DNA of 64,000 nt from Parcubacteria group bacterium (GTDB lineage Bacteria > Patescibacteriota > Minisyncoccia > Moranbacterales > UBA2206): the NCBI GenBank assembly GCA_041645535.1, contig JBAZPT010000002.1, positions 77,605 through 141,604 on the forward strand, written 5' to 3'. Below the pieces are notes generated by a model. It was not told where the DNA came from, did no database searches, and was given only the letters and a program-made list of their open reading frames with translations. This document shows, piece by piece, positions 22,676-62,868 of the stretch. Position numbers and translations under genes: made by a program. The number at the start of each line of letters is the position of its first letter. Position 1 is the stretch's first letter.

Positions 22676-23607
22676 AAAAAATCTTTATTATTCTATTTTT
22701 AATAGCTGCCACTTGGGCAATTTGTTCTTTTGTCGGCCGCCCCGACCGTGAATTGGATTTGAATAATTCTGCTAAAATTATTTCTCTAAATGACAATGGT
22801 TTTTCATATAATGTTCGGACTTCCTCTGCTACAATCGAAGACTTTTTAAAAGAAAATGATATAGTTTTGGGCGAGCATGACCAGATTATTCCGGAAAAAA
22901 ACACTCCGCTTCTGTCCGGAATGAACATTTCCATAAAAAGGGCTCTAAAAATAAAATTGCTAGCTGATGGAAAAAATTCCGAAGTTTATACCCTGGAAAA
23001 TTCCGCTGGTGGCGCTCTTTGGGAAAATAAAATAAGTTTAGGTGAAGATGATATTGTTAAGCCAGACTTGAATTATTCATTGCATAGCGGCGATAAAATA
23101 GAAGTTATCCGGGTGGATATCCGGGAAGAAACAGCCAATGAAAGTATTCCTTACGCGACTAAACGCAATGAGGACGACAACTTGAGCTGGCGAATAAAAA
23201 AAGTTACGCAAAAGGGGATAAATGGAATAAATGAAATTCGCTATAAGGTGGTATCCTATAACGGCAAAGAAATTTCCAGAAAGATTCTTTCTCAAAATGT
23301 CACTAAAGATCCAGTGAATGAAATTGTTACACAAGGAACATATATGAAGCTGGGCAAAGCGAAGACCGGACAGGGAACCTGGTATGCTTTTAAGGGCGGA
23401 CTGTTCGCCGCCAGCACAACGCTTCCGCGCGGATCTTATGCCAAAGTAACCAACACAGAAAATGGCCAATCAGTCATCGTGCAAATCAACGACTACGGCC
23501 CGCAAGGCAAAGGCCGGATCATTGACCTCGACAAAGTCGCCTTCGCCAAAATCGCATCGCTAGGAGCGGGGGTGATTGGGGTGAAGGTAGAACCGATATT
23601 AAATTAA
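22672..23607 (+). CDS. secreted cell-wall protein: DUF348-like + G5 domain + RlpA-like double-psi beta-barrel
   Basis: N-terminal TM, a G5-like KKVTQKGINGINEIRYKVVSYNGKEISRKILSQNVTKDPVNEIVTQGT, and DPBB-like GTWYAFKGGLFAAS...VIVQINDYGPQGKGRIIDLDKVAFAKIA. Confidence 0.75.
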   Translation: MKKIFIILFLIAATWAICSFVGRPDRELDLNNSAKIISLNDNGFSYNVRTSSATIEDFLKENDIVLGEHDQIIPEKNTPLLSGMNISIKRALKIKLLADGKNSEVYTLENSAGGALWENKISLGEDDIVKPDLNYSLHSGDKIEVIRVDIREETANESIPYATKRNEDDNLSWRIKKVTQKGINGINEIRYKVVSYNGKEISRKILSQNVTKDPVNEIVTQGTYMKLGKAKTGQGTWYAFKGGLFAASTTLPRGSYAKVTNTENGQSVIVQINDYGPQGKGRIIDLDKVAFAKIASLGAGVIGVKVEPILN

Positions 23608-26238: not shown

Positions 26239-26266
26239 TTGCGCAACTTTGTTTTTGTGTTATAAT
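26239..26266 (+). promoter_or_regulatory. extended -10 promoter giving a leaderless mRNA for 26273
   Basis: TTGCGC (26239-26244), 16 nt, TGTTATAAT (26258-26266). The ATG at 26273 falls on the predicted +1. Confidence 0.55.
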
Positions 26267-26272
26267 TTTGGC

Positions 26273-27322
26273 ATGCTAATAGAAATAAAACACATCAAAT
26301 TAACTTTGCTGATTTTGTTTAGTTTGGTAGTTTCGAGCTATGCTTTTTTCAGCCTGGCCCAGGAAAATTCGCAGACGCAAAATAATATTTTTATTGATTC
26401 CGACCAGGACGGACTTTCTGACCAGGAAGAAATTTCTTATGGCACTGACCCGCGCAATTCCGATTCGGATCATGATGGATATTCCGACGGCACCGAAATA
26501 AAATCCGGCTATGATCCGCTGATACCTTCTCCAGGAGACAGGGTAGTTAAGGAAACAGAAACAACCTCTGTCAATTCGGCCGATGAAACCAGCCTGACTA
26601 AGGAAGTCGCCCAAAAAATATTAACCCTGACCAACGACACCGCCGCTACCGACGAGGAAAGCCAGCAGATTTCCCTGGATCAAATAAAAACCATTATTAA
26701 TGAATCATTGCAGCCTCAAACAGAGGACGCCGAATTGCCGGCCATTGACAAAAAAGAGCTAAGCATATTAAAGCAAAATTACAAAGGAACAACGGCTGAA
26801 ATAGCGGCCAAAAAAAAGGCGGACTTCATCAATTACGCGGTAGGAATTTATTATGTTTTTTCCAGCAACTCCCAAACGGCCATTACTTCAACCGGCGATA
26901 TACCGAAAACAATCAATCTTATTTCACAGCAGATAATCACCGCCATGACCACGGGAGACTATAAATCCCTCGACGGCTTGAGCAAGAGCGCGGAAAAAAT
27001 TTATGAGCAGATGAAGTCAGTCGAGGTTCCGGAAGAAATGGCTGACGCGCACATTAGAATACTTCAGTTCGCGAAATACGCCGTGACGATCAAGGACTCT
27101 ATGAGCTCCGACTCGCAAGATCCTCTGGCGCAAATTGCTTCTTTGTCCAAAATGCAAAATTTTATCCAGGAGGTAATGTCGTTTTCGGGCGAGATGACTA
27201 CCAAGTTGCAATCTTATGGAATCCAGTTCAGTGAAATGCAAACCACTATGGAAAATTATGGCATTACCCCGCCGGTGGAATCAACTGACACATCCGCGGA
27301 TTCAAGTAACTCGACAGATTAA
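26273..27322 (+). CDS. secreted/anchored protein with thrombospondin-type-3-like Ca-binding repeats
   Basis: Signal anchor, then DSDQDGLSDQEEISYGTDPRNSDSDHDGYSDGTEIKSGYDP, then a helical domain. Confidence 0.65.
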   Translation: MLIEIKHIKLTLLILFSLVVSSYAFFSLAQENSQTQNNIFIDSDQDGLSDQEEISYGTDPRNSDSDHDGYSDGTEIKSGYDPLIPSPGDRVVKETETTSVNSADETSLTKEVAQKILTLTNDTAATDEESQQISLDQIKTIINESLQPQTEDAELPAIDKKELSILKQNYKGTTAEIAAKKKADFINYAVGIYYVFSSNSQTAITSTGDIPKTINLISQQIITAMTTGDYKSLDGLSKSAEKIYEQMKSVEVPEEMADAHIRILQFAKYAVTIKDSMSSDSQDPLAQIASLSKMQNFIQEVMSFSGEMTTKLQSYGIQFSEMQTTMENYGITPPVESTDTSADSSNSTD

Positions 27323-27328: not shown

Positions 27329-28429
27329 ATGAAAAAAATTTCTCGAAAAAAATTATTCTGCGTAAAAATGATTGCCGTCATTCTTTTCAGCTTATCCTTG
27401 AATTTGAGTCCGCTAACCGTACCTAAGGCCTATGCCTGGGAAACATACATTACAACTCCACTGGGAGTAATGCTCGATACTATGATCAGTATAGTTAAGG
27501 GCGTTTTATTGGGTTCGTTGAAACAGGCAGCCGCAAAGGCTCTTAATAAAGAAATAAGCAATATGGTCGGCGGATCTTCTTCTAGCAACGCCATGTTTGT
27601 CACTGACTGGCAGGATTATCTGATTAAACAGCCGGAACAAAAAACCAAAGTCTTTTTGAATGCCTACATCGATCAGGCAACCTCCGGCCGCGGATCGCTT
27701 TCGCAATACATCCCAGCCGGCTCTGAAGGCTTTGGCCTGAACGCCGCCAATTACAACAATCAGCTGAAAATTGGAGCTACCGCTTCCATTGTAAATCCAA
27801 AAGATCCTAAGGTTACCTATGTCGGCAATCCTTCGCAAATGTTCGCTGAAGGTAATTTCCGCAATTTGAGCCTGTATCTTTCCGGCATTAACAATCCCTG
27901 GGCTTTTAATCTGCATATTCAGGAAAAATTTGACGAAACCAAGAAAAATGAACAACTGACGGCCGCTGAAAAAGCTCGCGCGGGATCAGGCTTTACCGGC
28001 ACGGAATCCAACGGCAAAACCATCACGCCAGGTATCTTAATCAAGGAACAAATGGCGGGAGTGCAAAATATTGGCAATACCATTATTGGCAACGCCACCA
28101 ATATTCCGGAAGTGATCACGGCTATTGTTTCCCAAATGGCCATCCAATCAATCAAACAAGGCGTCGGCAAAGTCCAGGCTAACATTCAAAAAGAAGTTAC
28201 CACCGCGCAAAACCAGGCATCCAGCCAACTCAATTCAGCTGTCCAGCAATTGGGTCCGGGAGCGCAATATACCTCCAGCTGGTCGCAAGGCGCTTCTTCC
28301 AGCACCACCTGTGCTGTCGCCTGCGCCGGCACCGGCGCGCATTACGGCGCCAGCTGTACCAGCGCCGAAAATGGAACCGCCGCCTGCCCAACCGTGGCTG
28401 GAAAACAATATTGTTGCATTCCGAGGTAG
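27329..28429 (+). CDS. secreted protein with Cys-rich C-terminus, unknown function
   Basis: N-terminal signal anchor; C-terminus TTCAVACAGTGAHYGASCTSAENGTAACPTVAGKQYCCIPR. Confidence 0.6.
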   Translation: MKKISRKKLFCVKMIAVILFSLSLNLSPLTVPKAYAWETYITTPLGVMLDTMISIVKGVLLGSLKQAAAKALNKEISNMVGGSSSSNAMFVTDWQDYLIKQPEQKTKVFLNAYIDQATSGRGSLSQYIPAGSEGFGLNAANYNNQLKIGATASIVNPKDPKVTYVGNPSQMFAEGNFRNLSLYLSGINNPWAFNLHIQEKFDETKKNEQLTAAEKARAGSGFTGTESNGKTITPGILIKEQMAGVQNIGNTIIGNATNIPEVITAIVSQMAIQSIKQGVGKVQANIQKEVTTAQNQASSQLNSAVQQLGPGAQYTSSWSQGASSSTTCAVACAGTGAHYGASCTSAENGTAACPTVAGKQYCCIPR

Positions 28430-28454: not shown

Positions 28455-28937
28455 ATGCCAAAACAAAAATTAATGAAAGAAAATTCCGAAAATATCACTA
28501 ACCATCTGGCTGTTTTTAGGGGCAAAACCATCAGGAAAACAATCTTTCAAAAAGAATGGTGGTTTTCAGTTGTTGATGTCATTCAGGTGCTTATTAACCA
28601 ACAAGATGGTCTAAAAGCTAGAAAATACTGGAACAAACTAGCGCAACGGCTACGAGAGGAGGGAAGTGAAGTGGTGACAAATTGTCACCAGTTGAAATTA
28701 CTGGCTCCTGATGGCAAAATGCGAGAAACAGACTGTGCTAACACGGAAGATATGTTCAGAATTGTGCAATCGATCCCGTCGCCCAAGGCCGAACCACTAA
28801 AACGCTGGCTGGCCAAAGTTGGCTATGAAAGAATTTACCCCATTGGATATGAAATTATCCAACGGGGTGAAGAAATTGAAAATCCGGAATTACCATGGCT
28901 AAATAATTTGACTTTTGCATATATTGGAATTACCTAA
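28455..28937 (+). CDS. Bro-N/antirepressor-like DNA-binding protein, apparently 3'-truncated
   Basis: FRGKTIRKTIFQKEWWFSVVDVIQVL...PKAEPLKRWLAKVGYERI. The frame runs into the GIY-YIG gene. Confidence 0.6.
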   Translation: MPKQKLMKENSENITNHLAVFRGKTIRKTIFQKEWWFSVVDVIQVLINQQDGLKARKYWNKLAQRLREEGSEVVTNCHQLKLLAPDGKMRETDCANTEDMFRIVQSIPSPKAEPLKRWLAKVGYERIYPIGYEIIQRGEEIENPELPWLNNLTFAYIGIT

Positions 28938-31241: not shown

Positions 31242-32156
31242 ATGCAAATTGATAATCTAAAAATATTTTCAAATTTTTCTCCCATCATTGCCCAACCAAT
31301 GGAAAGAGAAACTACGGAGCAATTTTCAAGAAGATGGGAAAAATTTGATGCTTTGCCTGAAAAAATCAAGGGCAAGCTTTCTGATCCAAAAGTTCCGGAA
31401 TCTATAAAGAATCTTGGAAAAATAAACAATTTAGCACCTCAACAAACCTGTAGTATTTCCAGAGCCATCAGAAGTTACTATTTCGGCGAGTTGAAGTTGG
31501 AGGATATGCCGGCGGTTTTGGCTAAAGAGATACCGATTGATTTGGCGAAAGCGCGGGAGATTTCGAGAATGGTAATTCAAAAGATTATTAATGACAACTC
31601 GGTGGAAGAAGCTTCGCAAGCCAAGCTGGTTCAGATAACTGTCGCTGACGCGCTAAAGGCTTATCCGGAAATTGGGGAGCAGTTGATCACATCCGAAAAA
31701 ATTGTTTTGAAAAATTTTCCGGAACCGGCGCGGCCGTGCCTCAAAAACTGGCTGGCGGATTTCACTTTCACGCTCGGGCGCGACAAACACACGGCGATGG
31801 ACAGGGGCATTTATCTTTTCCAAAGCGCCAACGGAAAGCGGTTGAATTCGCAAGACAGAAACAAGTTGGCTTATATTTTAAAAGCGTTTGATGAAAATTT
31901 GCCTATTTCTGTGAATAAGGATGTGAAGCAAATTGTTTTTGCGCCGCAACCCGAAACCCAAAACCTGAAACCTGAAACCCAGACTCCACCGACACAAGGA
32001 TTTTCCTCTGATATGCATAGCGGCGTGAGATTTTCATCAGCGCAGAAATTGCCATACGAACAAAAACAGGAACAGCCATATGTAATCAAGCCGATAGCGC
32101 CAAAGCAGGAAGAAAATAGACTATTACAGAAAAATGTAGTTGATTTAAGAGAGTAG
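31242..32156 (+). CDS. hypothetical protein (304 aa)
   Basis: ORF in the cluster. Contains the heptamer-repeat stretch at 31955-31990. Confidence 0.5.
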   Translation: MQIDNLKIFSNFSPIIAQPMERETTEQFSRRWEKFDALPEKIKGKLSDPKVPESIKNLGKINNLAPQQTCSISRAIRSYYFGELKLEDMPAVLAKEIPIDLAKAREISRMVIQKIINDNSVEEASQAKLVQITVADALKAYPEIGEQLITSEKIVLKNFPEPARPCLKNWLADFTFTLGRDKHTAMDRGIYLFQSANGKRLNSQDRNKLAYILKAFDENLPISVNKDVKQIVFAPQPETQNLKPETQTPPTQGFSSDMHSGVRFSSAQKLPYEQKQEQPYVIKPIAPKQEENRLLQKNVVDLRE

Positions 32157-33380: not shown

Positions 33381-35207
33381 ATGTTTAATTTTACTAAAAC
33401 TAAAAAAAGCGCTCCGGCTGGCAAAGAAGAACAGGATGAGCTTCTGCGCAGTGAAAAATATTACCGCGAGGGCATTGCTCAGCTTACAGATCTGATCGCG
33501 CCGGCCGCCATCAAGGTTATGCCGCGCTATATCCGCGTCGGCGAAATTTTGGCGGAAACGCTTTTTGTTATCGCTTATCCGCGTTATCTCCACAGCAATT
33601 GGTTTTCGCCAATTATCAATATTGACGCGCCGATTGATATTTCCATGTTTATCCATCCGATTGATACCGCGGAAATTTTGAAGTCGCTGCGAAAAAGCAT
33701 CACGCAAGTTGAATCGCAGATCAACATCGAGCAGGAAAAAGGGCTGGTACGCGATCCATCGCTCGAAACCGCGGCCAAAGATATTGAAGAACTGCGCGAC
33801 AAGCTCCAACAGGGAACGGAAAAATTTTTTCGCTACGGACTTTACATCACCATGTATGGGCAGGACGAAAAAGAGCTGGAAAAAATCGGAAAATCCATAA
33901 CTTCAATTTTGGAAGCGCAATTGGTTTATGTGAAACCCGCCGTTTTTAAATCGGAACAAGGGTTTGTCTCATCGCTTCCCATCGCCAATGATGAACTGGA
34001 CATCGGCACCAGCATGAATTCAGCTCCGCTTTCCACTTCGTTTCCCTTTGTTTCTTCGACCCTTTCCAATGATGAGGGCATCCTTTACGGCATCAACCGC
34101 CACAACAACAGTTTGATAATTTTCGACCGCTTCAAAATGGAAAACGCCAATATGGTGGTTTTCGCCAAGTCCGGCGCCGGCAAAAGTTATACGGTAAAAC
34201 TGGAGGTTTTGCGCTCGATGATGATCGGCACCGATGTCATCATTATCGATCCGGAAAATGAATACAAGCACTTGTGCGATACGGTTGGCGGAACTTTCGT
34301 AAAAATTTCCTTGAATTCCGACCAGCATATCAACCCGTTTGATTTGCCGAAACTCATCGAGGGCGAGGATCCGGAAGATATTTTGCGCAATAACATTGCT
34401 AATCTCATCGGCCTTCTGCATATTATGCTCGGTTCAATCACGCCGGAAGAAGATTCGATTTTAGACAAAGCCATCCATGAAACTTATTCCATCCGCGACA
34501 TAACCTCGCAAACCGATTTCAATGCTCTGGCCAGGGAAGCTTTTCCGACAATGACCGATCTCTATGAAGTGCTGCGCAATATGCAGGGCGGCGAGGATAT
34601 GGCAACCAGACTCGAAAAATATACCGAGGGAGTTTTCGCGGGATTTCTCAATAACACGACCAATGTGCGCGTCGACAACCAGCTGGTAGTTTTCAACATC
34701 CGCGATATGGAAGAGGAACTGCGCCCGATTGCTATGTATGTAGTTTTGCAATACATCTGGAACGAAATGCGCACCAACTTGAAAAAAAGGCTGGTGCTGG
34801 CGGACGAAGCCTGGGTGATGATGAAATATGAAGACGCGGCATCCTTTCTTTTCGGCATTGCCAAGCGCTGTCGGAAATATTATACCGGCCTCACCACCAT
34901 CACGCAGGATGTCAATGACTTTCTGGCTTCGCGCTATGGCAAGCCGATTGTCACCAATTCATCCATCCAGCTCCTGCTCAAGCAATCGCCGGCCGCCATT
35001 GATGTGATTACGGAAACATTTTACCTTACCGACCAGGAAAAATTCCTGCTTCTGGAAAGCAATGTGGGCGAAGGCATTTTTTTCGCCGGCACCAAGCATG
35101 TGGCCATCAAGGTTATCGCCTCCTATTCGGAAGACCAGATTATCACCACCGATCCGGCCCAGCTTTTGGAAATTGAACAAGCCAAAAAAGATTTTGAATC
35201 AGAATAA
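33381..35207 (+). CDS. VirB4/TrbE-family T4SS ATPase
   Basis: 608 aa; Walker A FAKSGAGKSYT, IIDPENEY, Walker B RLVLADEAW, TTITQD. Confidence 0.85.
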   Translation: MFNFTKTKKSAPAGKEEQDELLRSEKYYREGIAQLTDLIAPAAIKVMPRYIRVGEILAETLFVIAYPRYLHSNWFSPIINIDAPIDISMFIHPIDTAEILKSLRKSITQVESQINIEQEKGLVRDPSLETAAKDIEELRDKLQQGTEKFFRYGLYITMYGQDEKELEKIGKSITSILEAQLVYVKPAVFKSEQGFVSSLPIANDELDIGTSMNSAPLSTSFPFVSSTLSNDEGILYGINRHNNSLIIFDRFKMENANMVVFAKSGAGKSYTVKLEVLRSMMIGTDVIIIDPENEYKHLCDTVGGTFVKISLNSDQHINPFDLPKLIEGEDPEDILRNNIANLIGLLHIMLGSITPEEDSILDKAIHETYSIRDITSQTDFNALAREAFPTMTDLYEVLRNMQGGEDMATRLEKYTEGVFAGFLNNTTNVRVDNQLVVFNIRDMEEELRPIAMYVVLQYIWNEMRTNLKKRLVLADEAWVMMKYEDAASFLFGIAKRCRKYYTGLTTITQDVNDFLASRYGKPIVTNSSIQLLLKQSPAAIDVITETFYLTDQEKFLLLESNVGEGIFFAGTKHVAIKVIASYSEDQIITTDPAQLLEIEQAKKDFESE

Positions 35208-35211
35208 AAGT

Positions 35212-35721
35212 ATGTCTATCGAACAAAATATTGAGCGAGCCAATAAATTAAAAGAGCTAAGAAAAGGCATGGAAAAAAGTCCCTTGAAAAAGGCTAAGTT
35301 TGTGGCAGGAAAACTTGCCCTAATGAAATATTTCAATCCTTATATGGATTGGCTCTATGGCATCGCATTATCCGCCGCTCTCTTGAAAGATATTGTGGAT
35401 CTAGTCGGAATCGGCTCTCTTCCCGCTATTGGCACTGTCATTACCCTTATGGCTTCTATCACTATTTTTGCGGTTATGTTCATTACCGGTAATTTTTTTA
35501 AAAAACGCTGGGCTAAAAAAGTTGGGGTTGTTTTTATGGGAACGGCCGTTGAAATAATTTTTGGACTTAATTTTCTACCGGTTGAAACAGCTATCGTTAT
35601 AATTGTTTTTTACCTGGCTTTGGACGATAGGCGAAAAGAAGCCGAAGCCGCTGAAAAGAAAAAGGCGCAAGCGACCGGGCAGAGCGCAAATTATTCTCCA
35701 CAACCCGAATTTGCAGCGTAA
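35212..35721 (+). CDS. membrane protein (169 aa), unknown function
   Basis: ATG at 35212 (MSIEQNIERANK). The longer track ORF overlaps VirB4 and is rejected. Three or four TM helices and a charged tail. Confidence 0.55.
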   Translation: MSIEQNIERANKLKELRKGMEKSPLKKAKFVAGKLALMKYFNPYMDWLYGIALSAALLKDIVDLVGIGSLPAIGTVITLMASITIFAVMFITGNFFKKRWAKKVGVVFMGTAVEIIFGLNFLPVETAIVIIVFYLALDDRRKEAEAAEKKKAQATGQSANYSPQPEFAA

Positions 35722-35726: not shown

Positions 35727-36386
35727 ATGGTTAATTATAAAAAACTGAATATTCTCGCCTGGAGAGAAGACCTCGTAACTTTGGCGGTTATTGCTTTTTG
35801 CCTGTTGCTGGTAACTTTTTTTCCCGCCAGCGGAACTTCGCAATTTTTTACAAAAACTTTATTTTTTTTGCTAGTCGTTCCGATCTTGTATATTAAGCTT
35901 ATCCTAAAAAAATCTCTCAGCCAATTTGGATTCAACTTGAAAAATCCTAAACCTGGCATCCTGTGGTCATCCGCGGCCCTGGGGCTTTCCTTGCTTTTAT
36001 TTTTTGCGTTTTTACATTTTTACCCATTTTCAAATACAAACTTGCCGAACGCGATAACAGTTTCGTTTTGGGCATTCCTGTTTTATGAGCTAGTAATAGT
36101 CAGTTCCCTGTTTTTCTTGCAACAATTTTTCACCCAAGGCTTCGCGTTATTTTCTTTCAAGGAAAAGTTTGGAATCTGGTCTATTGTTTTTTCTTTTCTA
36201 GTCTTATTGATTTTTCTGCTGTCAAACAACAGCCTTGCGCTTTCTGACTTGCCCTTGCTTGTTTTTTTTCTGACGGGCAGCTTGGTTTCCTATAAGAGCG
36301 GTTCATTTATTTATTCCTACGCGGCCGGCTTATTATTTTTCATCTTGACGCATAGTTATTTAATCCATCTTATTAAAAATTTATGA
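35727..36386 (+). CDS. polytopic membrane protein (219 aa, ~6 TM), unknown function
   Basis: Hydrophobic ORF. Its stop overlaps the next start (ATGA at 36383). Confidence 0.55.
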   Translation: MVNYKKLNILAWREDLVTLAVIAFCLLLVTFFPASGTSQFFTKTLFFLLVVPILYIKLILKKSLSQFGFNLKNPKPGILWSSAALGLSLLLFFAFLHFYPFSNTNLPNAITVSFWAFLFYELVIVSSLFFLQQFFTQGFALFSFKEKFGIWSIVFSFLVLLIFLLSNNSLALSDLPLLVFFLTGSLVSYKSGSFIYSYAAGLLFFILTHSYLIHLIKNL

Positions 36387-39109: not shown

Positions 39110-39970
39110 ATGAATAAAAAAATAATTATTATTCTTTTTCTGTTAGTTTTTCTGTCATTACCTTTTTTTGCCAGCGCCCAAACAACTGGTCCTTTTAATT
39201 ATGTCCCTCTTGAAAAAATTCCCGGCTCGGACAAGGAAACTTCACAAGCGATTGATTTTTATACTTATGTTTCAGCTATTTACAAGTTCGGGATCTGGGC
39301 GGTAGGGATTGTGGCGCTGTTTATGCTGGTTTTTGGAGGCTACACCTACATCACTTCCGCCGGCAATAACAGTTCGATGGAAACAGCCAAAAAAATCATT
39401 ACCGACGCGATCGTGGGCGTTATTATGGCGCTCACCGCTTATCTTTTGCTTTTTGCGATTAATCCTGATTTGGTAAAAATGAAAAAACTGGCTCCAGTAG
39501 CAGGGATATCTGGTACAGGAACAGGGGCCACAACCACAGGAGCAACGGGAGCGCCCAGTGGCGTTGGCAAATGCGTACCACTAACTACCGGCCCTTGTTC
39601 AGTTGATAATCTGAAAAGTTCCTGTTTTGGAGCGACAAACGCAGAAAAAGCTTCGGCTATTTGCAACGCTGAAAGCGTTGGCGATCCAAGAGCCCTAAGC
39701 ATATCCGATAAATGCAAAAAGGGACAATCGTTTTCTGTGGGATTATTTCAAATTAACTTAACCGTTCATGACATCGGCAACGGTTGCACTTCGGCTTTTT
39801 CGGGCAAGAATTATGCTTGTTCCGTCACTGATCAAAACAAATACGATCAGTGCGTTTCCCTGGCGCAAGATTCAACCAAAAACATCCAGGAGGCTTGTGC
39901 TATTTTCAAGGCCAGCGGTTGGAATGCTTGGGGGGCTAATACTGATCCTGTTAAAGGCTGTCATTTTTAA
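39110..39970 (+). CDS. VirB2/T4SS-pilin-like domain fused to a lytic-transglycosylase (SLT/lysozyme)-like domain
   Basis: Signal peptide plus two-helix pilin module (FGIWAVGIVALFMLVFGGYTYITSAGN...AIVGVIMALTAYLLLFAINP), a Gly/Thr linker, then AICNAESVGDP...SVGLFQINL. Confidence 0.6.
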   Translation: MNKKIIIILFLLVFLSLPFFASAQTTGPFNYVPLEKIPGSDKETSQAIDFYTYVSAIYKFGIWAVGIVALFMLVFGGYTYITSAGNNSSMETAKKIITDAIVGVIMALTAYLLLFAINPDLVKMKKLAPVAGISGTGTGATTTGATGAPSGVGKCVPLTTGPCSVDNLKSSCFGATNAEKASAICNAESVGDPRALSISDKCKKGQSFSVGLFQINLTVHDIGNGCTSAFSGKNYACSVTDQNKYDQCVSLAQDSTKNIQEACAIFKASGWNAWGANTDPVKGCHF

Positions 39971-47657: not shown

Positions 47658-48137
47658 TTAAATTAAGTCGGCTGGCTCGATGACAACTTTGCGCTCTTCG
47701 CCTTCGCCGATACTTTCAGTTTTAACCTGGCTGTTTTTCGATAAAGCCAGATGCACCAGTCTTCTTTCATAAGGAGACATCGCGCGCAGAACCACAGCCC
47801 TTTTTTCACGAATGGCCTGTTCAGCCATTTCCTCCGCCATTTTTTCAATGGAAACATTTTTTTCTTCCCGATATGAGTTTACATCCACAGTAAAATTTAT
47901 TCTTTCCTCAGTTTTTTGGCGCACCAAAAGCCGCGCGATATGCTGGAGCGACTGCAAATTCACGCCGTATTGTCCGATCAAAAAATTAGAGTCGGCGGTT
48001 TTAATATTGCAAACCACTGTGTCTTCCTCTTCGCCAGCCGACTCTTTGATTTCCACCTCGGAGCTAAAGCCCATTTTGGAAACAAGCTCCGCCACTGTTT
48101 CCTTAATCACTTCTTTTATATTGCCAGTTTTTTCCAT
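47658..48137 (-). CDS. jag: Jag-like RNA-binding protein (KH + R3H)
   Basis: ATG at 48137 (MEKTGNIKEV); LIGQYGVNLQSLQHIARL; R3H region MSPYERRLVHLAL. Downstream of yidC as usual. Confidence 0.8.
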   Translation of the reverse strand: MEKTGNIKEVIKETVAELVSKMGFSSEVEIKESAGEEEDTVVCNIKTADSNFLIGQYGVNLQSLQHIARLLVRQKTEERINFTVDVNSYREEKNVSIEKMAEEMAEQAIREKRAVVLRAMSPYERRLVHLALSKNSQVKTESIGEGEERKVVIEPADLI

Positions 48138-48144
48138 AATAGTA

Positions 48145-48912
48145 TTAGTTAACTTTTTTAGCTTCCGGCAATTCCTTTTTTTCCAGATAATATTGCTGAG
48201 CAATCATAAACACCGTTGACACCAGCCAATAGAGAGCCAGCCCGGCCGGAAATTTTATACCAATAAACAAAGTGAGAAGCGGCCCCAAGTAAAGCATTTG
48301 CTTGGACATCATTTGCGAAAAATCCGCGTCTTTGCCGGCGGGCGCCGCAACCTGTTTCCCCATCAGCATTTTTGTCTGGATATATTGCGAGCCGGCAGCC
48401 ATGATTACCAAAATTATTTGCGGAACATTAGCGAACGTCAAACTGCCGAGATTTAAAACCGACGCCAAATCGATGATGCCCAAAAACATATGATGGATTT
48501 GCCCCGGATCAGGCACAAAAGCATACAAATCCGCAATATTTACCTTGAGGCCGGCCTCGGAAATATTAAATAACACCCGGTAAATAGCGATTAAAAAAAC
48601 CAATTGGACAATCATCGGCAGGCATCCGGAAAAAGGATTGGTTTTCTTTTCTTTATATAGATCCATCAGCGCCCGGCTTTGTTTTTCTTTGTCATTTTTA
48701 TGCTTGGCCTGCAATTCTTTTATTTTTGGCTGCAACTCCTGCATTTTTTTCTGCGATTCAATTTGTTTCTTGCTTAGAGGAATAAGCAGAAGCTTAATAA
48801 CAATTGTTACCAGAATTATAGCCACGCCAAAATCGCGGAAAGGCACGACCGAATAGACAAAAATCAACAGGTTATAAATCGGCTTATATATAATTGCGTC
48901 AAATAAAAACAT
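48145..48912 (-). CDS. yidC: membrane protein insertase YidC (short form)
   Basis: LLIPLSKKQIESQKKMQELQPKIKELQ...GCLPMIVQLVFLIAIY...PAGLALYWLVS. Confidence 0.9.
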   Translation of the reverse strand: MFLFDAIIYKPIYNLLIFVYSVVPFRDFGVAIILVTIVIKLLLIPLSKKQIESQKKMQELQPKIKELQAKHKNDKEKQSRALMDLYKEKKTNPFSGCLPMIVQLVFLIAIYRVLFNISEAGLKVNIADLYAFVPDPGQIHHMFLGIIDLASVLNLGSLTFANVPQIILVIMAAGSQYIQTKMLMGKQVAAPAGKDADFSQMMSKQMLYLGPLLTLFIGIKFPAGLALYWLVSTVFMIAQQYYLEKKELPEAKKVN

Positions 48913-48921
48913 TGTTTCTTT

Positions 48922-49272
48922 TTAGCTCTTGTTTAATAGATTACTTTTTTCAATCAGTTTGGCGACTGTCTTTTCAATTGCCGCATAAGTTTCTTTCCCA
49001 CCGGCCTTGCCCCTTGCCGACACCACAATATCCGTTCCTTCTTTTATGTTTTTTAGTTCCTGTCTGAATATTTCCCGCAATTTTCTTTTTAAAGCATTCC
49101 TTTCCACCGCCTTTTTAGAAAATCGCATTCCCACTACAACCCCGATTCTGGTTTTATTCTGCCCATTTTCCGTAAATTGCAACTGCAGGAAATCCCGGAA
49201 AAAACGCCGGCCGGTGCGCTGAACCTTGGAAAAATCCTTCTTGTCAACTAATCGTTTTTCCGCCGGCAACAT
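48922..49272 (-). CDS. rnpA: ribonuclease P protein component
   Basis: 116 aa basic protein between rpmH and yidC; RIGVVVGMRFSKKAVERNALKRKLRE. Confidence 0.85.
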   Translation of the reverse strand: MLPAEKRLVDKKDFSKVQRTGRRFFRDFLQLQFTENGQNKTRIGVVVGMRFSKKAVERNALKRKLREIFRQELKNIKEGTDIVVSARGKAGGKETYAAIEKTVAKLIEKSNLLNKS

Positions 49273-49278
49273 ATTTTT

Positions 49279-49385
49279 ATCCCGTTACAACTTAAATAAT
49301 TGTAGTTATCCTTGTATTAAAAAATATCCCGAGCAAAGCTAGCTTAATCAAGTTACAACCAGGATGGATTAAGTTGTAACGGGAT
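49279..49385. repeat. CCCGTTA-family inverted-repeat element (copy C)
   Basis: ATCCCGTTACAACTTAA (49279-49295) pairs with TTAAGTTGTAACGGGAT (49369-49385): perfect 17 bp. It fills the rpmH-rnpA spacer. Confidence 0.8.
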
Positions 49386-49522
49386 TATACCTGGGTTAAT
49401 TTTTTCCGTCCCTTCTGCCGTCTGGCTTTCAGCACCTTTTTCCCTCCCTTGGTCTGGTTGCGTTTCAAAAACCCATGTCTTTTCCGGCGCCTAATTTTTT
49501 TCGGCTTGTAAGTTTGACTCAT
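49385..49522 (-). CDS. rpmH: 50S ribosomal protein L34
   Basis: Not in the ORF track because it is under 60 aa. My translation is MSQTYKPKKIRRRKRHGFLKRNQTKGGKKVLKARRQKGRKKLTQV. Confidence 0.9.
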   Translation of the reverse strand: MSQTYKPKKIRRRKRHGFLKRNQTKGGKKVLKARRQKGRKKLTQV

Positions 49523-49725
49523 TGTTTTTTTCTAATTTTTTACTACCTCCCAGTGTACCAACGCAGAAGCTAAAAGTCAATTTTTTAGCGCAGGGGTTTA
49601 CTTTTTATTTCCCTTCCCTTTATAATAAAAAATGCACAGGTTATCAACAGGTTGATCATCTTTTTGCCTTAGGCGCCCTGGCGCTACTGTGATATACTTT
49701 TTTAACAACCTAATTATATTATCAC

Positions 49726-51117
49726 ATGGCTAACGAAGAACTTTGGCAGGCCGCCCTGGGAGAAATAGAGCTCTCCATCTCCAAGGCTAACTTTATCACT
49801 TGGTTTAAAAACACCTATGTCTTGTCCGCTGAAAACGACAAGGTTGTCATTGGCGTTCCCAATGGCTTTGCCAAGGAATGGCTGGAAAACAAGTATAATC
49901 TCTATATTTTACGCGCTCTGCGCAATATAAAGCCGGAAATTAAGGAGGTTTCCTGCATAATTGCTTCTCCGGAAAACTTTGGCCAAAAAAATGCCTCGGT
50001 TGATGCGATTATCCCAGCTGGCTCCCGTGTTTATCCTGTTGGCGATAATACAGATTATCCTCAAAAAATAGCTAGAATAAGCCAAGAAAGCAACCTGAAC
50101 CCTAAGTATGTTTTCGATAATTTTGTAATTGGCGGCAGTAATGAATTGGCGCGGGCCGCTTGTTACGCGGTTTCCCAAAATCTGGGCAAAGTCTATAACC
50201 CGCTCTTCATTTATGGCGGCGTGGGCTTGGGAAAAACGCACTTACTCCAATCCATCGGCAATGCGGTTTTGAAAATAAATCCCTCCCGCAAGGTAAAATA
50301 TATAACTTCAGAAAGATTCACCACCGAACTCATTGACTCCATAAAAAACCAAAAGGTCGCCCTTTTTAAGGATCATTACCAGAAAATAGACCTTTTAATT
50401 ATCGACGATGTTCAGTTTTTATCCGGCAAGGAAAAAACCCAGGAAGAATTTTTTCATATTTTCAACTTTCTCTATCAATTAAACAAGCAGATTGTTTTAA
50501 GCAGCGACCGAGCGCCCAAGGCTATCCCTACTCTAGAGGAGCGCCTGCGCTCCCGCTTTGAGGGCGGCATGATTGCGGATGTTTCGCGGCCGGACTTGGA
50601 AACTAGAATCGCTATTTTACGCAGAAAAGCGGCCGTTGACGGCCTCGAGATCAATGACGAAGCTCTGGAATTTATTGCCGCCAACATCACTCATAATATC
50701 CGGGAATTAGAGGGAGCGCTTACGCGCGTCGCTGTTTCCGCCCAGCTGCTCAAGAGAGATGTGGTGGATGTTAAATTTGCCACCGCGGTGCTTTCCGAGC
50801 TTATTTCCAGCGGAAAAAAGAAGGGGATCACCCATACCCATATTATTAAGGCAGTTTCTGACTATTTTGACATTAGCCAGGAAGATTTGGTTGTAAAAGG
50901 ACGCAAACAGGAGGTGGTAAGGCCCAGACAAATTGCGATGTATCTGATGCGCATAGAACTCCAATATTCTTTCCCTGGCATCGGGGAAAAGCTGGGCGGC
51001 CGCGACCACACCACTGCCATCCATGCTTTTGAAAAAATCACCAAGGAGCTGGAGGAGGACATGAAGCTGTTGGAGGATATAACCCTCCTGCGAGAAAAGA
51101 TTTATTCTTTAAGTTAA
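49726..51117 (+). CDS. dnaA: chromosomal replication initiator protein DnaA
   Basis: 463 aa; Walker A GGVGLGKTHLL; LLIDDVQFL; C-terminal domain IV RDHTTAIHA. Confidence 0.95.
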   Translation: MANEELWQAALGEIELSISKANFITWFKNTYVLSAENDKVVIGVPNGFAKEWLENKYNLYILRALRNIKPEIKEVSCIIASPENFGQKNASVDAIIPAGSRVYPVGDNTDYPQKIARISQESNLNPKYVFDNFVIGGSNELARAACYAVSQNLGKVYNPLFIYGGVGLGKTHLLQSIGNAVLKINPSRKVKYITSERFTTELIDSIKNQKVALFKDHYQKIDLLIIDDVQFLSGKEKTQEEFFHIFNFLYQLNKQIVLSSDRAPKAIPTLEERLRSRFEGGMIADVSRPDLETRIAILRRKAAVDGLEINDEALEFIAANITHNIRELEGALTRVAVSAQLLKRDVVDVKFATAVLSELISSGKKKGITHTHIIKAVSDYFDISQEDLVVKGRKQEVVRPRQIAMYLMRIELQYSFPGIGEKLGGRDHTTAIHAFEKITKELEEDMKLLEDITLLREKIYSLS

Positions 51118-51381
51118 TATCCTGTGGATAAAGCCGTTTTTTTGTTACTATGCCGGTGCCTTACCCCTGCCTTACCTGTTATTTAACTGTCCTTGCTTTT
51201 GCATTATATTTTTTCCAAAATTATTTCAACCTGTCGTCCTCCATTAAACACCTCTCTTATCCACATGTTGTCCCCTAAAATATTTACCTCTAATGCTTTA
51301 TTTGCCATAACTTAACCCCCTAATCTCTCTTTTTCTTTTCCCCATATAATAATAGTTGCTTATAAATATTTATATAATATT
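51118..51381. promoter_or_regulatory. candidate oriC (dnaA-dnaN spacer)
   Basis: Perfect DnaA boxes at 51123-51131 (TGTGGATAA) and 51257-51265 (TTATCCACA). An AT-rich run at about 51340-51381 follows. Gene orientation diverges around this locus. Confidence 0.6.
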
Positions 51382-52536
51382 ATGAAATTAATATGTACTC
51401 AGGAAAATTTTAAAAAGGCTATTTTTAATTCGGAGCGGGTTGTGGCTAAACAAACAACCTTGCCGATTTTAAATAACATCCTTATAGAGGCGGATAAGAA
51501 GGGATTATCCTTTTCAGCCACAAATTTGGAAATGGGAGCAGTTGTGAACATTGGAGCTAAAGTGGAAAAAGAGGGTAAAATCACCCTACCGGCGAAATTA
51601 TTAAGTAATTTCGTGAATAATTTGCTATTAGGGGAAAATATCGAAATAGAGGGGCATGATCAAGCGCTTAAGATAAAAAGTGGCGGAAGCAAAGCCTTAA
51701 TTAAGGGTTTGCCGGCCACAGATTTCCCCTTAATTCCAAAGAAGAAAAGCGAACCGCAGCTGCAAATAGAGGGCGAAAAAATGGCCTTAATTATAAAAAA
51801 AGTGGTTTCCGCGGTGGCCTTGAATGAAACCAGACAGGAATTAACCGGGGTAAATGTGCTTTTTGGCGAAAAAGAGCTGTTTTTTGCGGCCACAGACAGT
51901 TTTCGGTTGACAGAATACAGGTTGGCCATTTCGGAAAAAAACAGAAACAAAGAGCTTTATCAAGCCTTAATTTCTAAAAAAGAAAGCGTTATTATTCCGG
52001 CGGTTACTTTATTGGAGGTGGGACGGATTATCACCGAGGACGACACAATAGTGAAAATAACCATTGAGGAGGGGCAAGTTTTTTTTGAAGTAAACGGAAC
52101 AACGCTGGTTTCCCGCCTGATTAATGGAAAATATCCGGATTATAAGCACATAATGCCCAAAGATTTCAAAACTAGGATGGTAGGAGAAAAAAGCGGACTC
52201 CAGGGGGCGATTAAAATGGCGAGTATTTTTGCCAGCGGGAAGACTAGTGAGATCAGGCTAAAAACTGACCAGAGGAAAAAGATTATTTCAATTGAGGCCA
52301 GGAGCGTTGAGATTGGGGAAAATGTTTCAGAGCTCAAATTAGACATCACAGGAGAAGATCAGGATATTGTTTTTAACTCGCGCTATCTTTTAGATGGAAT
52401 AAGCACTATTGAAACCTCGCAGGTGGCCATTTTGGCAAACAGTGGAACCGCGCCGGTGGCGCTCAAGGAGATCGATGAAAAAACCGGCGAGGTACTGGAG
52501 GATTATATTTATATCGTAATGCCGATAAAGAATTAA
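51382..52536 (+). CDS. dnaN: DNA polymerase III beta sliding clamp
   Basis: 384 aa, directly after dnaA; LPILNNILIEA, ATDSFRL. Confidence 0.9.
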   Translation: MKLICTQENFKKAIFNSERVVAKQTTLPILNNILIEADKKGLSFSATNLEMGAVVNIGAKVEKEGKITLPAKLLSNFVNNLLLGENIEIEGHDQALKIKSGGSKALIKGLPATDFPLIPKKKSEPQLQIEGEKMALIIKKVVSAVALNETRQELTGVNVLFGEKELFFAATDSFRLTEYRLAISEKNRNKELYQALISKKESVIIPAVTLLEVGRIITEDDTIVKITIEEGQVFFEVNGTTLVSRLINGKYPDYKHIMPKDFKTRMVGEKSGLQGAIKMASIFASGKTSEIRLKTDQRKKIISIEARSVEIGENVSELKLDITGEDQDIVFNSRYLLDGISTIETSQVAILANSGTAPVALKEIDEKTGEVLEDYIYIVMPIKN

Positions 52537-54457: not shown

Positions 54458-55330
54458 ATGGCAAAAATACTTAATGTTTTCAACAAAATAAACTCTTTGC
54501 GAGAGAGATATTATGAGGCGTCCATCGGAAAAGAAGCCCTTATTAAACTTATCTCTGAAACCGAGGTGGCCGAACAAGTCTATAACTCAAATGCTATAGA
54601 AAACAGCACGCTAACTCTTGAAGAAACGGAAAAAATACTTTTGCAGATTGATCTGGATCGATACATAAATGAACGGGAGATTTTTGAAGCCAAAAACTTG
54701 GCGCGGGTTGTGTCATATATTGACAAGCGGGCCAAAGAAAAAGAACTTACTCTCGAGGTAGTTTTGTTTTTGCATAAAATGTTGATTTCCAACATCCGTG
54801 ATGAAATTGCCGGAAGATTCAGAAGGGATAATGAATTTGTGCGCGTGGGAAATTATATCGCTCCCAACCCTAAAGAAGTAACCGGGCTTTTGGAAAAAAT
54901 GCTGGTGGAATATAATGCCGCGAGCCATGAAAATATCATTAAGCGGATAGCCAGGTTGCATTTGACGTTTGAACACATCCACCCGTTTTGCGATGGCAAT
55001 GGACGCATCGGCCGGGTGATTAATAATTATTTATTGATCCGGGAAGGTTTCGTTCCCATAAACATAAAGTTTATTGACAGAAAAAAATATTACGAAGCGT
55101 TCAGGGAATTTGACGGGAAAGGCGCGACTGCAATCATGGAAGAAATGGTGGGCAAGGCTCTGACTAATAGTTATTATAAAAGACTGGCATACCTCGAAGG
55201 CAAAAAAATCATTACGCTAGCTGAACATGCGAAAGCAAACAAGCTCTCACATTCAAATCTGATCAATAAGGCCAACCGGCAGACAATCGAGGCTTTTTTG
55301 GAAAAAGGCGTCTGGAAAATCGGGGTATAA
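54458..55330 (+). CDS. fic: Fic/DOC-family protein (AMPylase-type), class II with N-terminal inhibitory motif
   Basis: Active site HPFCDGNGRIGR. N-terminal SNAIEN matches the [ST]xxxE[GN] inhibitory-helix motif. Confidence 0.85.
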   Translation: MAKILNVFNKINSLRERYYEASIGKEALIKLISETEVAEQVYNSNAIENSTLTLEETEKILLQIDLDRYINEREIFEAKNLARVVSYIDKRAKEKELTLEVVLFLHKMLISNIRDEIAGRFRRDNEFVRVGNYIAPNPKEVTGLLEKMLVEYNAASHENIIKRIARLHLTFEHIHPFCDGNGRIGRVINNYLLIREGFVPINIKFIDRKKYYEAFREFDGKGATAIMEEMVGKALTNSYYKRLAYLEGKKIITLAEHAKANKLSHSNLINKANRQTIEAFLEKGVWKIGV

Positions 55331-55376
55331 AAGTTATTATAAATAGGCGGTGCTACGCAGCAAGTCGAGTAACAAT

Positions 55377-55691
55377 ATGGACAAAAAAATCATCAAACAC
55401 GCTTTTCTTTTGGCGTTGGGCGAGGGGGTCTACATAACTCTAGTCGCGCTCCTGATGTTTGGTATCCAGAAACTGTTCGGCGCGAAGCCCGATCCCGTTA
55501 TCGTTGCTCCAATCGCTTTCCTTCTGCTCTTCGTCATTTCCGCTGCAATTTCGGGAGCTTTGATTTTGGGGAGACCCGTTATGCTGTATCTGGACGGCAA
55601 GAAAAAAGACGCGCTCCAGCTTTTTGGATTCATATTGCTCTGGTTGATTTTATTTTTGGCCGTAGCGTTTTTGATTGTGGCTAGTAAGTAA
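55377..55691 (+). CDS. small three-TM membrane protein (copy 1)
   Basis: MDKKIIKHAFLLALGEGVYITLVALLMFG.... About 260 nt are nearly identical to 58975-59228. Confidence 0.6.
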   Translation: MDKKIIKHAFLLALGEGVYITLVALLMFGIQKLFGAKPDPVIVAPIAFLLLFVISAAISGALILGRPVMLYLDGKKKDALQLFGFILLWLILFLAVAFLIVASK

Positions 55692-55794
55692 TATGCTACG
55701 TAATAAAATTAAATGAGCAGAAAAAAAAGGAAGAATATTTTCAGTCTAAAGCTTGTTTATATTACTATTGCTAATATAAACAAAAGAGGCCAAA

Positions 55795-56325
55795 ATGTTT
55801 ATATTGAATGAAATTCTTGATGAGGATTTTAAGTATGCCCGGGGAAAAAGTAAATTTATGATAAAAACTAAAAAAGAAATCGTTATATTTCAGTCAAAAA
55901 CCGGAGCGATTGAGCTTAGGGGTGATTTTAGCCGTGAAACGATTTGGGCCAATCTTGATCAGATTGCAGGCTTGTTTGACCGCGATAAATCAGTGATTTC
56001 AAGACATATAAAGAACATATTTAACGAAGGCGAGTTAAGGCGAAATTCAGTTGTTGCATTTTTTGCAACAACTGCTGCTGACGGAAAAACATATAAAGTC
56101 GAGTATTTTAATCTGGATGTAATTCTTTCAGTCGGGTATCGAGTGAATTCTAAGAAAGCAACCATATTTCGCCAATGGGCTACCAAAATTTTGCGCGAGC
56201 ATATCACCAAGGGATACACCGTTAACCGCAAGCAAATCGCGAAAAACTACGACGCCTTTATGAAGGCCGTCACGGATGTGCAAACGCTTTTGCGTTTCTT
56301 TGGTTTTTACGCAAGACAAAATTAA
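55795..56325 (+). pseudogene. RhuM-family protein, C-terminally truncated
   Basis: IVIFQSKTGAIELRGD...VEYFNLDVILSVGYRVNSKKATIFRQWATKILREHITKGY. 176 aa, against 353 aa for the full-length homolog at 57005. Confidence 0.6.
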
Positions 56326-56459
56326 AAACAATGAGAAATATCAATCCAAACGCGCTTACAGCTATCACGCTTTTGATTGCTGAGAGCAATCCAAAGAAGA
56401 AAGATTTAATGACTGGTCTGGTGGTAAAAATGCTAAAATAAATTCTAGGGCTGGGGATA

Positions 56460-56570
56460 GAGAGGCTCGCGATGGCGGGCGGGGCTAGTAAGTAATATGC
56501 TATGCCATGACGAAGTTTTAACGAAGTCTGGTTACGTAGCAGGTTACGTAGCAAAATCAGAAAATTGTGG
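56460..56570. repeat. solo copy (R1) of the GC-rich end + displaced gene tail + GGTTACGTAGCA repeats
   Basis: GAGAGGCTCGCGATGGCGGGCGGGG joined to CTAGTAAGTAATATGCT...GGTTACGTAGCAGGTTACGTAGCAAAAT. Matches 59637-59661 plus 59699-59784. Confidence 0.75.
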
Positions 56571-56641
56571 AAAGAAAAATAGAAAGTAGTCATCAAGCGC
56601 GTCCGCGGGGGAGTTTTAATTAAAGATTGGAAAAAATAAAA

Positions 56642-56687
56642 TTATCCACAGGGCGGGGATTGACGAAGAGCATGTTAGTGATATAAT
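56642..56687 (+). promoter_or_regulatory. perfect DnaA box next to an extended -10 promoter
   Basis: TTATCCACA (56642-56650), TTGACG (56660-56665), 16 nt, TGATATAAT (56679-56687). Confidence 0.5.
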
Positions 56688-56714
56688 ATCACTATAAATA
56701 ACTTTAAAAAATTT

Positions 56715-56990: not shown

Positions 56991-57004
56991 TTTAAAAAAT
57001 AATT

Positions 57005-58066: not shown

Positions 58067-58119
58067 TATATTTTTCCAAACAGGCTAATATTGCTTGCTA
58101 CCCGAAGCATAATAGAAAG

Positions 58120-58144
58120 AAACCTCTTTTTGAGAGGTTTTTGC
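58120..58144 (+). terminator. rho-independent terminator
   Basis: AAACCTCT-ttttg-AGAGGTTT followed by TTG. Confidence 0.6.
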
Positions 58145-60294: not shown

Positions 60295-60301
60295 TAGGTT
60301 A

Positions 60302-60943: not shown

Positions 60944-60944
60944 T

Positions 60945-62861: not shown

Positions 62862-62868
62862 AAATTAT

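Follow-up and report, generated by a model that had tools for sequence, protein, structure and literature searches.

Within a cluster of type IV secretion system (T4SS) genes, a 64,000-nt stretch of DNA from a Parcubacteria group bacterium (GCA_041645535.1, contig JBAZPT010000002.1, positions 77,605-141,604 of the forward strand; hereafter the window) encodes a single protein in which a VirB2-like pilin module is joined to a lysozyme-like domain. Sequence comparisons suggest, with a probability of roughly 0.6, that this fusion protein would act as a peptidoglycan glycosidase dedicated to the T4SS, with a VirB2-family hairpin that docks at the assembly site and keeps the enzyme on the outer side of the membrane. 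Pilins and lysozyme-like T4SS hydrolases are both known; what appears to be undescribed is their covalent, modular arrangement and a partner protein specific to the catalytic domain. Full-text searches retrieved no description of a pilin-hydrolase fusion in the literature searched. Precomputed annotations pair the corresponding Pfam families, T4SS_pilin (PF18895) and SLT_3 (PF18896), in several relatives: the architecture is catalogued but, as far as found, without interpretation in the literature.

An earlier note made from the DNA letters had proposed a VirB2-type pilin and a VirB1-like lytic transglycosylase domain within one polypeptide, and the sequence features on which it relied are all present. 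The signal peptide is followed by two hydrophobic segments (approximately aa 53-82 and 96-122) separated by the polar loop SAGNNSSMETAKK, then by a Gly/Thr-rich linker (GTGTGATTTGATGAPSG) and a domain with ten cysteines that contains AES (E188-S189) and GLFQIN (211-216). The signal-peptide cleavage site was placed from an AXA motif. Apart from the hydropathy profile, the two helices are recovered in the AlphaFold2 model of the full-length protein (50-82 and 87-117, with predicted local distance difference test (pLDDT) values of 73-88), where a disordered linker and a confidently modelled C-terminal domain follow. The signal peptide and the positive loop point to the topology of VirB2, in which the two termini face outward and the loop lies inside; the domain rich in cysteines would then be extracytoplasmic, which is consistent with disulfide formation. 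Of the 251 collected relatives, 171 keep the pilin and SLT_3 modules in a single open reading frame (ORF), which rules out a frameshift or an assembly error as the origin of the fusion; the claim that both modules reside in one polypeptide holds.

A homologue search of a large protein collection returned 145 matches, more than 100 of them near full-length, and all their named sources are Parcubacteria, Moranbacteria or Patescibacteria. In a core alignment of 36 relatives (34-87% identity), the invariant positions are E188, S189, G211, Q214, N216, Y245, K94 and five cysteines. The GLFQIN residues L212, F213 and I215 are conserved in at least 90% of the sequences and D200, 12 residues past E188, is nearly invariant. 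Mean pairwise identity differs strongly between regions, from 58% in the hairpin core and 46% in the SLT_3 domain to 38% in the N-terminal extension, 25% in the signal peptide and 19% in the linker.

By profile matches, the N-terminal part is a member of the VirB2-like T4SS_pilin family, in line with the claim of the earlier note. The Pfam score of the window protein is marginal (26.8 bits for a cut-off of 26.6, aa 57-113); scanned singly, 35 of the 36 aligned homologues match the family at E <= 0.01 (best 7e-9). A weak NCBIfam match was also found to the Mbov_0395 pilin-like family (E = 0.017). A family hidden Markov model (HMM) finds 45 stand-alone pilins in related loci, and fused and stand-alone pilins have the same core and, in the loop, the same signature Y-x-T-[SA]-[AG]-G-[ND]...AK. 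The motif INPDLV at the end of the second transmembrane helix is typical of the fused pilins and mostly absent from the stand-alone ones. The fusion exceeds the size of a pure hairpin pilin (approximately 70-100 aa when mature), with 165 residues of linker and enzyme following the second helix, and like a pilin it has its gene either alongside those of VirB4, VirB6 and VirB3 or within a pilin array. The conservation of the pilin module and the features it has in common with stand-alone pilins indicate that it does not serve as a mere generic anchor.

The C-terminal domain matches SLT_3 above the Pfam cut-off, again marginally (28.2 bits for a cut-off of 27, aa 173-274), as do 26 of the 36 aligned homologues when scanned singly (E <= 0.01). 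The canonical SLT family (PF01464), to which VirB1 belongs, reaches only 13.5 bits for a cut-off of 21.3 and covers aa 181-216 only. Thus, of the lytic transglycosylase assignment made in the earlier note, the lysozyme-like nature of the domain stands, and its membership in the canonical SLT/VirB1 family does not. Structure prediction and a Pfam scan, both of which that note had suggested as checks, bear out the former: modelled alone with AlphaFold2, the domain reaches a pLDDT of 94.8 and a predicted template modelling score of 0.88, and all 33 Foldseek matches in the PDB, weak as they are, correspond to C-type lysozymes, alpha-lactalbumins, MltF or RpfE. Nearly all the matches among viral proteins are SLT/LT_GEWL domains, entry lysozymes and tape-measure proteins, with probabilities up to 0.99. 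The predicted catalytic glutamate ends a helix (174-189) and precedes a GLxQ motif, as is characteristic of the lysozyme-like superfamily. The profile-profile comparison (hhalign) of SLT_3 with the canonical SLT tails carried by the same pilin module in other proteins is weak (P = 0.0019, probability 14%) and aligns the ES and GLxQ motifs. Sequence and model together indicate that the domain is a highly divergent representative of the lysozyme-like superfamily, and its predicted activity would be the cleavage of peptidoglycan glycan strands, by either lytic transglycosylase or hydrolase chemistry. Past the linker, Pfam detects only SLT_3, with no second peptidase domain of the CHAP or NlpC/P60 type.

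A survey across Patescibacteria, also proposed in the earlier note, found the fusion to be widespread and modular rather than a one-off. A search with the SLT_3 domain alone finds 802 cluster representatives (50% identity level) at E <= 1e-3, of which 346 reach E <= 1e-10, and in these proteins the domain is nearly always C-terminal. When the 251 collected proteins were classified with family HMMs, besides the 171 that associate the pilin module with SLT_3, 25 carry a near-identical pilin module with another tail and 55 carry SLT_3 without this pilin. The non-pilin proteins include long ones of approximately 850-1120 aa (e.g. P0130, P0150), in which a cytoplasmic low-complexity region and transmembrane segments precede SLT_3, and short ones of approximately 200-260 aa with a single N-terminal transmembrane anchor. 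As in the fusion, SLT_3 follows a transmembrane segment and a linker on these anchors, so that the domain appears to be consistently membrane-tethered, the pilin hairpin being its commonest tether. Long SLT_3 proteins were considered as possible fusions with the 887-aa protein encoded upstream of the fusion gene, a candidate that was rejected because phmmer found no similarity and the architectures differ.

The alternative tails of the pilin module are informative about the function of SLT_3. One is a canonical SLT domain (PF01464, 69 bits in P0035), which in P0106 occupies the exact slot of the window gene in locus L006; others are ES...ACGxxQ variants. By motif only, further tails resemble NlpC/P60 (YTDCS...GDVL.VPGHVVIC) and LAS metallopeptidases (SCHANGTCAD...HVE; CHYGG...A.D...HxH); Pfam finds nothing in seven non-SLT tails (P0032, P0037, P0052, P0068, P0090, P0093, P0103). 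In these other-tail fusions, similarity to the window protein is 57-82% over the N-terminal module and 21-31% past INPDLV, and this sharp break places the swap point in the linker. Two different pilin fusions lie in tandem within the slot in L004 and L005, and such fusions are sometimes in tandem with an SLT_3 fusion. That a bona fide SLT is found on the same carrier and in the same position is arguably the strongest indirect evidence for a peptidoglycan-cleaving role of SLT_3 in the T4SS. Several of the GTDB loci (L008, L013, L018, L019, L021, L043, L054) are labelled 'uncultured Bdellovibrionales', 'Aenigmatarchaeota archaeon' or 'uncultured archaeon'; they contain a Patescibacteria-type gene, some with window-type neighbours, and are probably mislabelled bins.

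The gene directly downstream of the fusion encodes a 177-aa membrane protein for which no credible relative was found in Pfam or the PDB. Its invariant residues are F111, R124, E128, C143, S167, F168 and C169. It was counted over 86 loci with an HMM limited to its domain of approximately 110 aa, and 68 copies were found: 53 directly after pilin-SLT_3 genes and 12 after long non-pilin SLT_3 genes. It follows 66 of 81 SLT_3 genes; among the 22 pilin fusions that have another tail, only 1 is followed by it (Fisher p = 2.5e-11). Its frequency is nearly the same whether VirB4 is nearby (18/24) or not (17/23). These numbers show that the partner goes with the catalytic domain rather than with its carrier or the core machinery. 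Its role as a companion of the pilin carrier, suggested by a jackhmmer link to genes that follow NlpC/P60-type fusions, was discarded, as a domain-only HMM showed that the link stems from similarity between transmembrane and low-complexity regions and that the partner tracks SLT_3. The partner is most likely a cognate regulator, and most simply it would be an inhibitor that protects the wall of its producer. It has the trait of effector-immunity systems in which a cognate downstream gene is specific to a catalytic domain, here on pilin and non-pilin anchors alike. A precedent is offered by the Brucella T4SS autolysin SagA, which, according to PMC8334348, has a dedicated inhibitor, PhiA, that parallels the role proposed here.

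The genomic context of the fusion is that of a chromosomal, origin-proximal, monoderm-type (MPF-FATA-like) T4SS as known for Patescibacteria (Table 1). The co-oriented block includes VirB6-, PrgI/VirB3-, TraC- and VirB4-like genes and is followed on the opposite strand by Wzy-type, glycosyltransferase and flippase genes, then by jag and yidC. Farther on, dnaA (49726-51117) and dnaN (51382-52536), on the + strand, lie at the cumulative GC-skew minimum (window 48000-52536); the fusion gene is approximately 10 kb from dnaA and the end of the T4SS block approximately 8 kb from the origin. The slot and the gene order are the same as in the window in L001, L002, L005, L006 and many of the 80 GTDB species loci. 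The fusion proteins of L001 and L002 are 43-49% identical to that of the window, and the syntenic slot is held across lineages whose proteins are 26-51% identical. Among the 47 loci with at least 7 kb of upstream sequence, 24 have a co-directional VirB4 upstream. Where no VirB4 is nearby, the fusion and its partner are followed, in at least 13 loci, by 3-5 stand-alone pilins of approximately 120-150 aa; these fusion-headed arrays are the 'VirB2 arrays' of PMC12102498. No coupling protein, relaxase, second pilin or second SLT_3 copy was found among the scanned ORFs of the window, nor was any further pilin detected there by the HMM that detects stand-alone pilins in other loci. The related locus L002 has a stand-alone pilin two genes beyond the fusion. 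A promoter and terminator scan of the 35-42 kb region gave the same result as shuffled sequence.

Several scenarios may account for these observations. In the favored one, the fusion would be exported by Sec and lose its signal peptide, and the hairpin would be inserted in the membrane as VirB2 is, with both ends outside and the short Lys-containing loop inside. A tether of approximately 30 residues would hold the enzyme at the outer face of the membrane and the strongly conserved hairpin would dock it at the T4SS or pilus assembly site, where it would cleave glycan strands and so make a passage for the apparatus through the wall of the producer itself; if carried outward, it may act on the host wall. 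The 177-aa partner would restrain or regulate it. By analogy, the role of the enzyme may equal that of VirB1 in diderms, or that of the transmembrane-anchored PrgK, TraG and CwlT in Gram-positives. Tethering to the machine is preferred to scenarios that require a filament since the same enzyme and partner occur on non-pilin anchors in the same position. Some observations weigh against this scenario. In the window sequence, the Pfam scores of both domains are within 1.2 bits of their cut-offs. The fold matches of the C-terminal model are weak (best PDB E = 0.93, with template modelling scores of 0.44-0.51; best viral E = 0.029; overall, E values of 0.03-10 and template modelling scores of 0.4-0.54), and searches of the PDB by sequence and by profile, with the protein and with the family alignment, gave nothing meaningful. 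The full-length model retrieved neither a lysozyme nor a pilin with Foldseek: it matched only generic helical hairpins (E > 4) and no solved VirB2/TraA pilin, the hairpin fold being too simple to discriminate. Approximately half of the SLT_3 loci with enough flanking sequence have no VirB4 within 10 kb, and some SLT_3 copies thus appear to work at a distance from that cluster, frequently within pilin arrays. Finally, the hairpin is better conserved than the enzyme (58% versus 46%), which a pure anchoring role would leave unexplained and which leaves room for true polymerisation.

An alternative would be that the fusion polymerises as a major, minor or tip pilin, and that a lysozyme-decorated filament drills through the host wall and the producer's own. 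The hairpin is the most conserved region and has the core and loop signature of stand-alone pilins, the fusion heads arrays of stand-alone pilins in at least 13 loci, and no other pilin is detectable in the cluster of the window. The C-terminus of VirB2-type pilins lies on the exterior of the pilus in F-pilus structures, and by a rough geometric estimate the 30-residue flexible linker could accommodate a brush of domains. The swappable wall-degrading tails and the specific downstream gene resemble effector-immunity modules. In a rather doubtful extension of this alternative, a filament of pilins with interchangeable hydrolases (SLT_3, canonical SLT, NlpC/P60-like and LAS-like, seen or suspected) would digest both walls while dedicated membrane partners protect the producer. 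The T4SS and its pilins are also essential for epibiotic growth in a Saccharibacterium, the single species tested genetically (PMC10633639). Nevertheless, the presence of SLT_3 and its partner on non-pilin anchors suggests that membrane tethering, and not incorporation into a filament, is the conserved requirement; a 16-kDa domain on each subunit would be unprecedented for VirB2 pili, Foldseek found no structural match to solved pilins, and no visualised pilus was found for these lineages in the literature searched. On balance, a filament of this kind seems unlikely, and the placement of the enzyme on the filament and the breaching of a host wall that the earlier note had envisaged are interpretive steps beyond the architecture itself.

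It could also be that the fusion is a pro-protein, cleaved at or after INPDLV or in the linker as the pilin matures, which would yield, at the assembly site, equal amounts of a mature short pilin and of a lysozyme that is free or only loosely bound. The near restriction of INPDLV to fused pilins and the disordered, variable linker would agree with such processing; pilins of the VirB2 family such as TrbC are trimmed at their C-terminus and VirB1 is processed to VirB1*. One of the small polytopic membrane proteins of the cluster has a homologue in L001 (6159-6839) with a weak match to Rce1-like/CPBP intramembrane proteases, which makes it a possible candidate for a pilin-processing enzyme. Yet the window copy of this membrane protein has no Pfam match, no protease was identified in the window, and the position of SLT_3 behind a transmembrane segment and a linker on other anchors suggests that permanent tethering is the rule, all of which makes the pro-protein improbable. 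Even less probable is a housekeeping autolysin or envelope protein carried by a two-helix anchor that resembles a pilin, with an incidental T4SS neighborhood. The marginal pilin score of the window sequence, the loci without VirB4 and the presence of other wall enzymes nearby in the genome could be invoked in its favor, but the slot after VirB4 and the protein of approximately 900 aa is fixed and syntenic across divergent lineages, the VirB4-less loci are mostly pilin arrays, T4SS_pilin is matched by 35 of the 36 homologues and the hairpin is far better conserved than the signal peptide.

The fusion can be compared with several known systems. VirB1 of Agrobacterium and Brucella VirB1/SagA are likewise lysozyme-like glycosidases encoded with a T4SS and thought to open the peptidoglycan; VirB1, of the SLT family (PF01464), is soluble, periplasmic and a protein in its own right, whereas the enzyme of the window belongs to SLT_3 and is covalently joined to a pilin hairpin. 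PrgK (pCF10), TraG (pIP501), CwlT (ICEBs1) and TcpG resemble the fusion in that they belong to monoderms, carry an extracytoplasmic glycosidase behind an N-terminal transmembrane anchor and are encoded in a cluster of the VirB4/VirB6/PrgI type (PMC12102498). Nevertheless, the PrgK/TraG/CwlT-type proteins have a generic transmembrane anchor, and usually a glycosidase and a CHAP or NlpC/P60 domain in one chain, while the anchor of the fusion is a conserved VirB2-family pilin module and the peptidase-like domains of its relatives, recognized by motif only, sit on a second, tandem pilin fusion (L004, L005). The patescibacterial VirB2-like pilins described in Southlakia epibionticum and TM7x belong to the same Pfam family and have the same hairpin core, loop motif, clusters and arrays (PMC10633639, PMC12102498), but they are short (precursors of approximately 120-150 aa), and the fusion adds to them INPDLV and the linker plus enzyme. 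Published studies describe the T4SS clusters of Patescibacteria, with their VirB2-like pilins and origin-proximal location, and handle pilins and VirB1 as separate components (PMC10633639, PMC12102498, PMC12857230).

More distant parallels exist in other envelope machines. Polymorphic effector-immunity modules such as the T6SS (type VI secretion system) pair Tse3-Tsi3 and the X-Tfe/X-Tfi pairs of the Xanthomonas T4SS likewise combine a conserved N-terminal carrier with swappable C-terminal wall-degrading domains, with a sharp break in the linker, and a small envelope-located downstream gene specific to the catalytic type is found there as in the fusion loci. In the effector-immunity modules, the carrier is a translocation signal, whereas here it is a pilin, the inhibition by the partner is putative and the non-SLT_3 tails are classed by motif, except for the SLT tail, which is confirmed by Pfam. 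FlgJ is a flagellar rod cap with a muramidase and VgrG3 of Vibrio cholerae a T6SS spike with a lysozyme-like domain; in these, as in the SLT proteins of phage tape measures and tails, a building block of an envelope machine is associated with a peptidoglycan-cleaving domain, separate or fused depending on the lineage. Their carriers and machines are unrelated to those of the fusion, and the resemblance is one of analogy only, apart from the Foldseek phage matches.

According to a 2025 survey, most patescibacterial genomes with VirB2-like pilins have no VirB1 (PMC12102498). The fusion family may supply the wall-opening enzyme reported missing from most of these T4SSs, in the form of a wall-cutting activity built onto the pilin in many lineages. 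The Patescibacteria, which live attached to other microorganisms, account for a sizeable part of the bacterial diversity that is still uncultured, and the fusion offers a testable handle on how their essential and enigmatic T4SS crosses a monoderm wall. If it does polymerise, it would be the first secretion-system pilus with a built-in enzymatic activity, which would imply a new mode of wall penetration and provide a mechanistic basis for the essentiality of the T4SS in the epibiotic lifestyle. The finding would moderately surprise T4SS specialists. Testable parts also come from it: a small, confidently modelled, disulfide-rich domain with an obvious predicted catalytic glutamate, a candidate regulator and natural hydrolase variants.

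Table 1 Features of the fusion gene, of the surrounding T4SS cluster and of related loci. Positions refer to the window unless a locus is named.
Feature	Position	Strand	Basis or remarks
Pilin-lysozyme fusion gene	39110..39970	+	ATG start; 286 aa plus stop; ORF list; Pfam T4SS_pilin and SLT_3 above cut-off; 145 homologues
Signal peptide, aa 1-23	39110..39178	+	Hydropathy, sequence; predicted signal peptidase I site ASA/Q (FFASA/QTT)
VirB2-like pilin hairpin, aa 53-122	39266..39475	+	First transmembrane helix, loop SAGNNSSMETAKK with invariant K94, second transmembrane helix ending INPDLV
Flexible Gly/Thr/Pro-rich linker, aa 123-152	39476..39565	+	pLDDT <50 over aa 129-148; 19% mean identity
Disulfide-rich lysozyme-like (SLT_3) domain, aa 153-286, 10 Cys	39566..39967	+	Pfam PF18896; AlphaFold2
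Predicted catalytic Glu188-Ser189, end of helix 174-189	39671..39676	+	Invariant in 36 and in 44 sequences; helix from model
GLFQIN motif, aa 211-216, counterpart of GLMQ in SLT	39740..39757	+	Conservation in 36-sequence alignment
SLT_3-specific partner, 177 aa	40011..40544	+	N-terminal transmembrane segment, low-complexity linker, ~110-aa extracytoplasmic domain, one conserved Cys pair
Bro-N domain protein (phage-associated DNA-binding domain)	28455-28937	+	Directly upstream of VirB6-like gene
VirB6/TrbL-like polytopic membrane protein, 654 aa	29266..31230	+	Pfam TrbL 18 bits, below cut-off; L005/L006 homologues carry PF19590 TrbL_3
304-aa protein	31242-32156	+	Co-oriented block
PrgI / VirB3-like protein, 130 aa	32296..32688	+	Pfam PrgI 46.6 bits
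TraC-like protein, 228 aa	32693..33379	+	Window copy without Pfam match; tblastn matches are PF26593 TraC-like genes in L001, L002, L005, L006
VirB4-type T4SS ATPase, 608 aa	33381..35207	+	Pfam P-loop_TraG 96 bits, AAA_10, TraC_F_IV, CagE_TrbE_VirB
Two small polytopic membrane proteins	35062-35721 and 35727-36386	+	Syntenic in L002, L005, L007, L013, L016, others
Secreted Thr/Asp-rich protein with C-terminal transmembrane segment, 887 aa	36383..39046	+	Directly upstream of fusion; no Pfam match; syntenic ~900-1040-aa gene in relatives
Membrane-anchored beta-propeller-like (TolB/PD40-like) protein, 378 aa	40561..41697	+	Weak TolB, PD40 matches; last of co-oriented block; syntenic in most window-type loci
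Long SLT_3 proteins (~870-1140 aa) directly downstream of VirB4, then partner gene	L042 7547-10423; L046 7490-10471; L049 6486-9581; L057 4702-7314; L068 7328-10528; L069 6983-10405; L071 7631-10462
Pilin module with other wall-hydrolase-like tails	L004 1094-1915; L005 8268-9158 and 10001-10870; L006 10001-10969; L012 8559-9944; L021 12478-13428; L023 11280-12257; L034 2146-3033
Array loci	L024, L028, L036, L037, L039, L045, L050, L052, L063, L066, L070, L074, L085 (~10-13 kb of each)

Some of the neighboring genes call for comment. The first of the two ORFs for small polytopic membrane proteins overlaps the end of VirB4, and its true start probably lies after the VirB4 stop; the homologue found in L001 is that of the second. 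The 887-aa protein may be an adhesin or a surface component of the T4SS. Upstream of the block, a TSP3-repeat protein (26249-27322) and a 366-aa protein without Pfam match (27329-28429) precede the Bro-N gene. Elsewhere in the window, further cell-wall enzymes are encoded on the + strand at 4689-5759 and 22672-23607, a LysM-LysM-CHAP protein and a DUF348-G5-DPBB (RpfB-like) protein. A set of mobile or defence-like genes is found at 3425-4549 (-), 18541-19498 (+) and 54458-63462 (+); it comprises a tyrosine integrase, a nucleotidyltransferase/HEPN pair, Fic, two RhuM-family genes, DUF6498, a LexA-like repressor, a fused HsdR_N/N6_Mtase/Eco57I methylase and NYN-domain proteins (10429-10977, 62869-63462).

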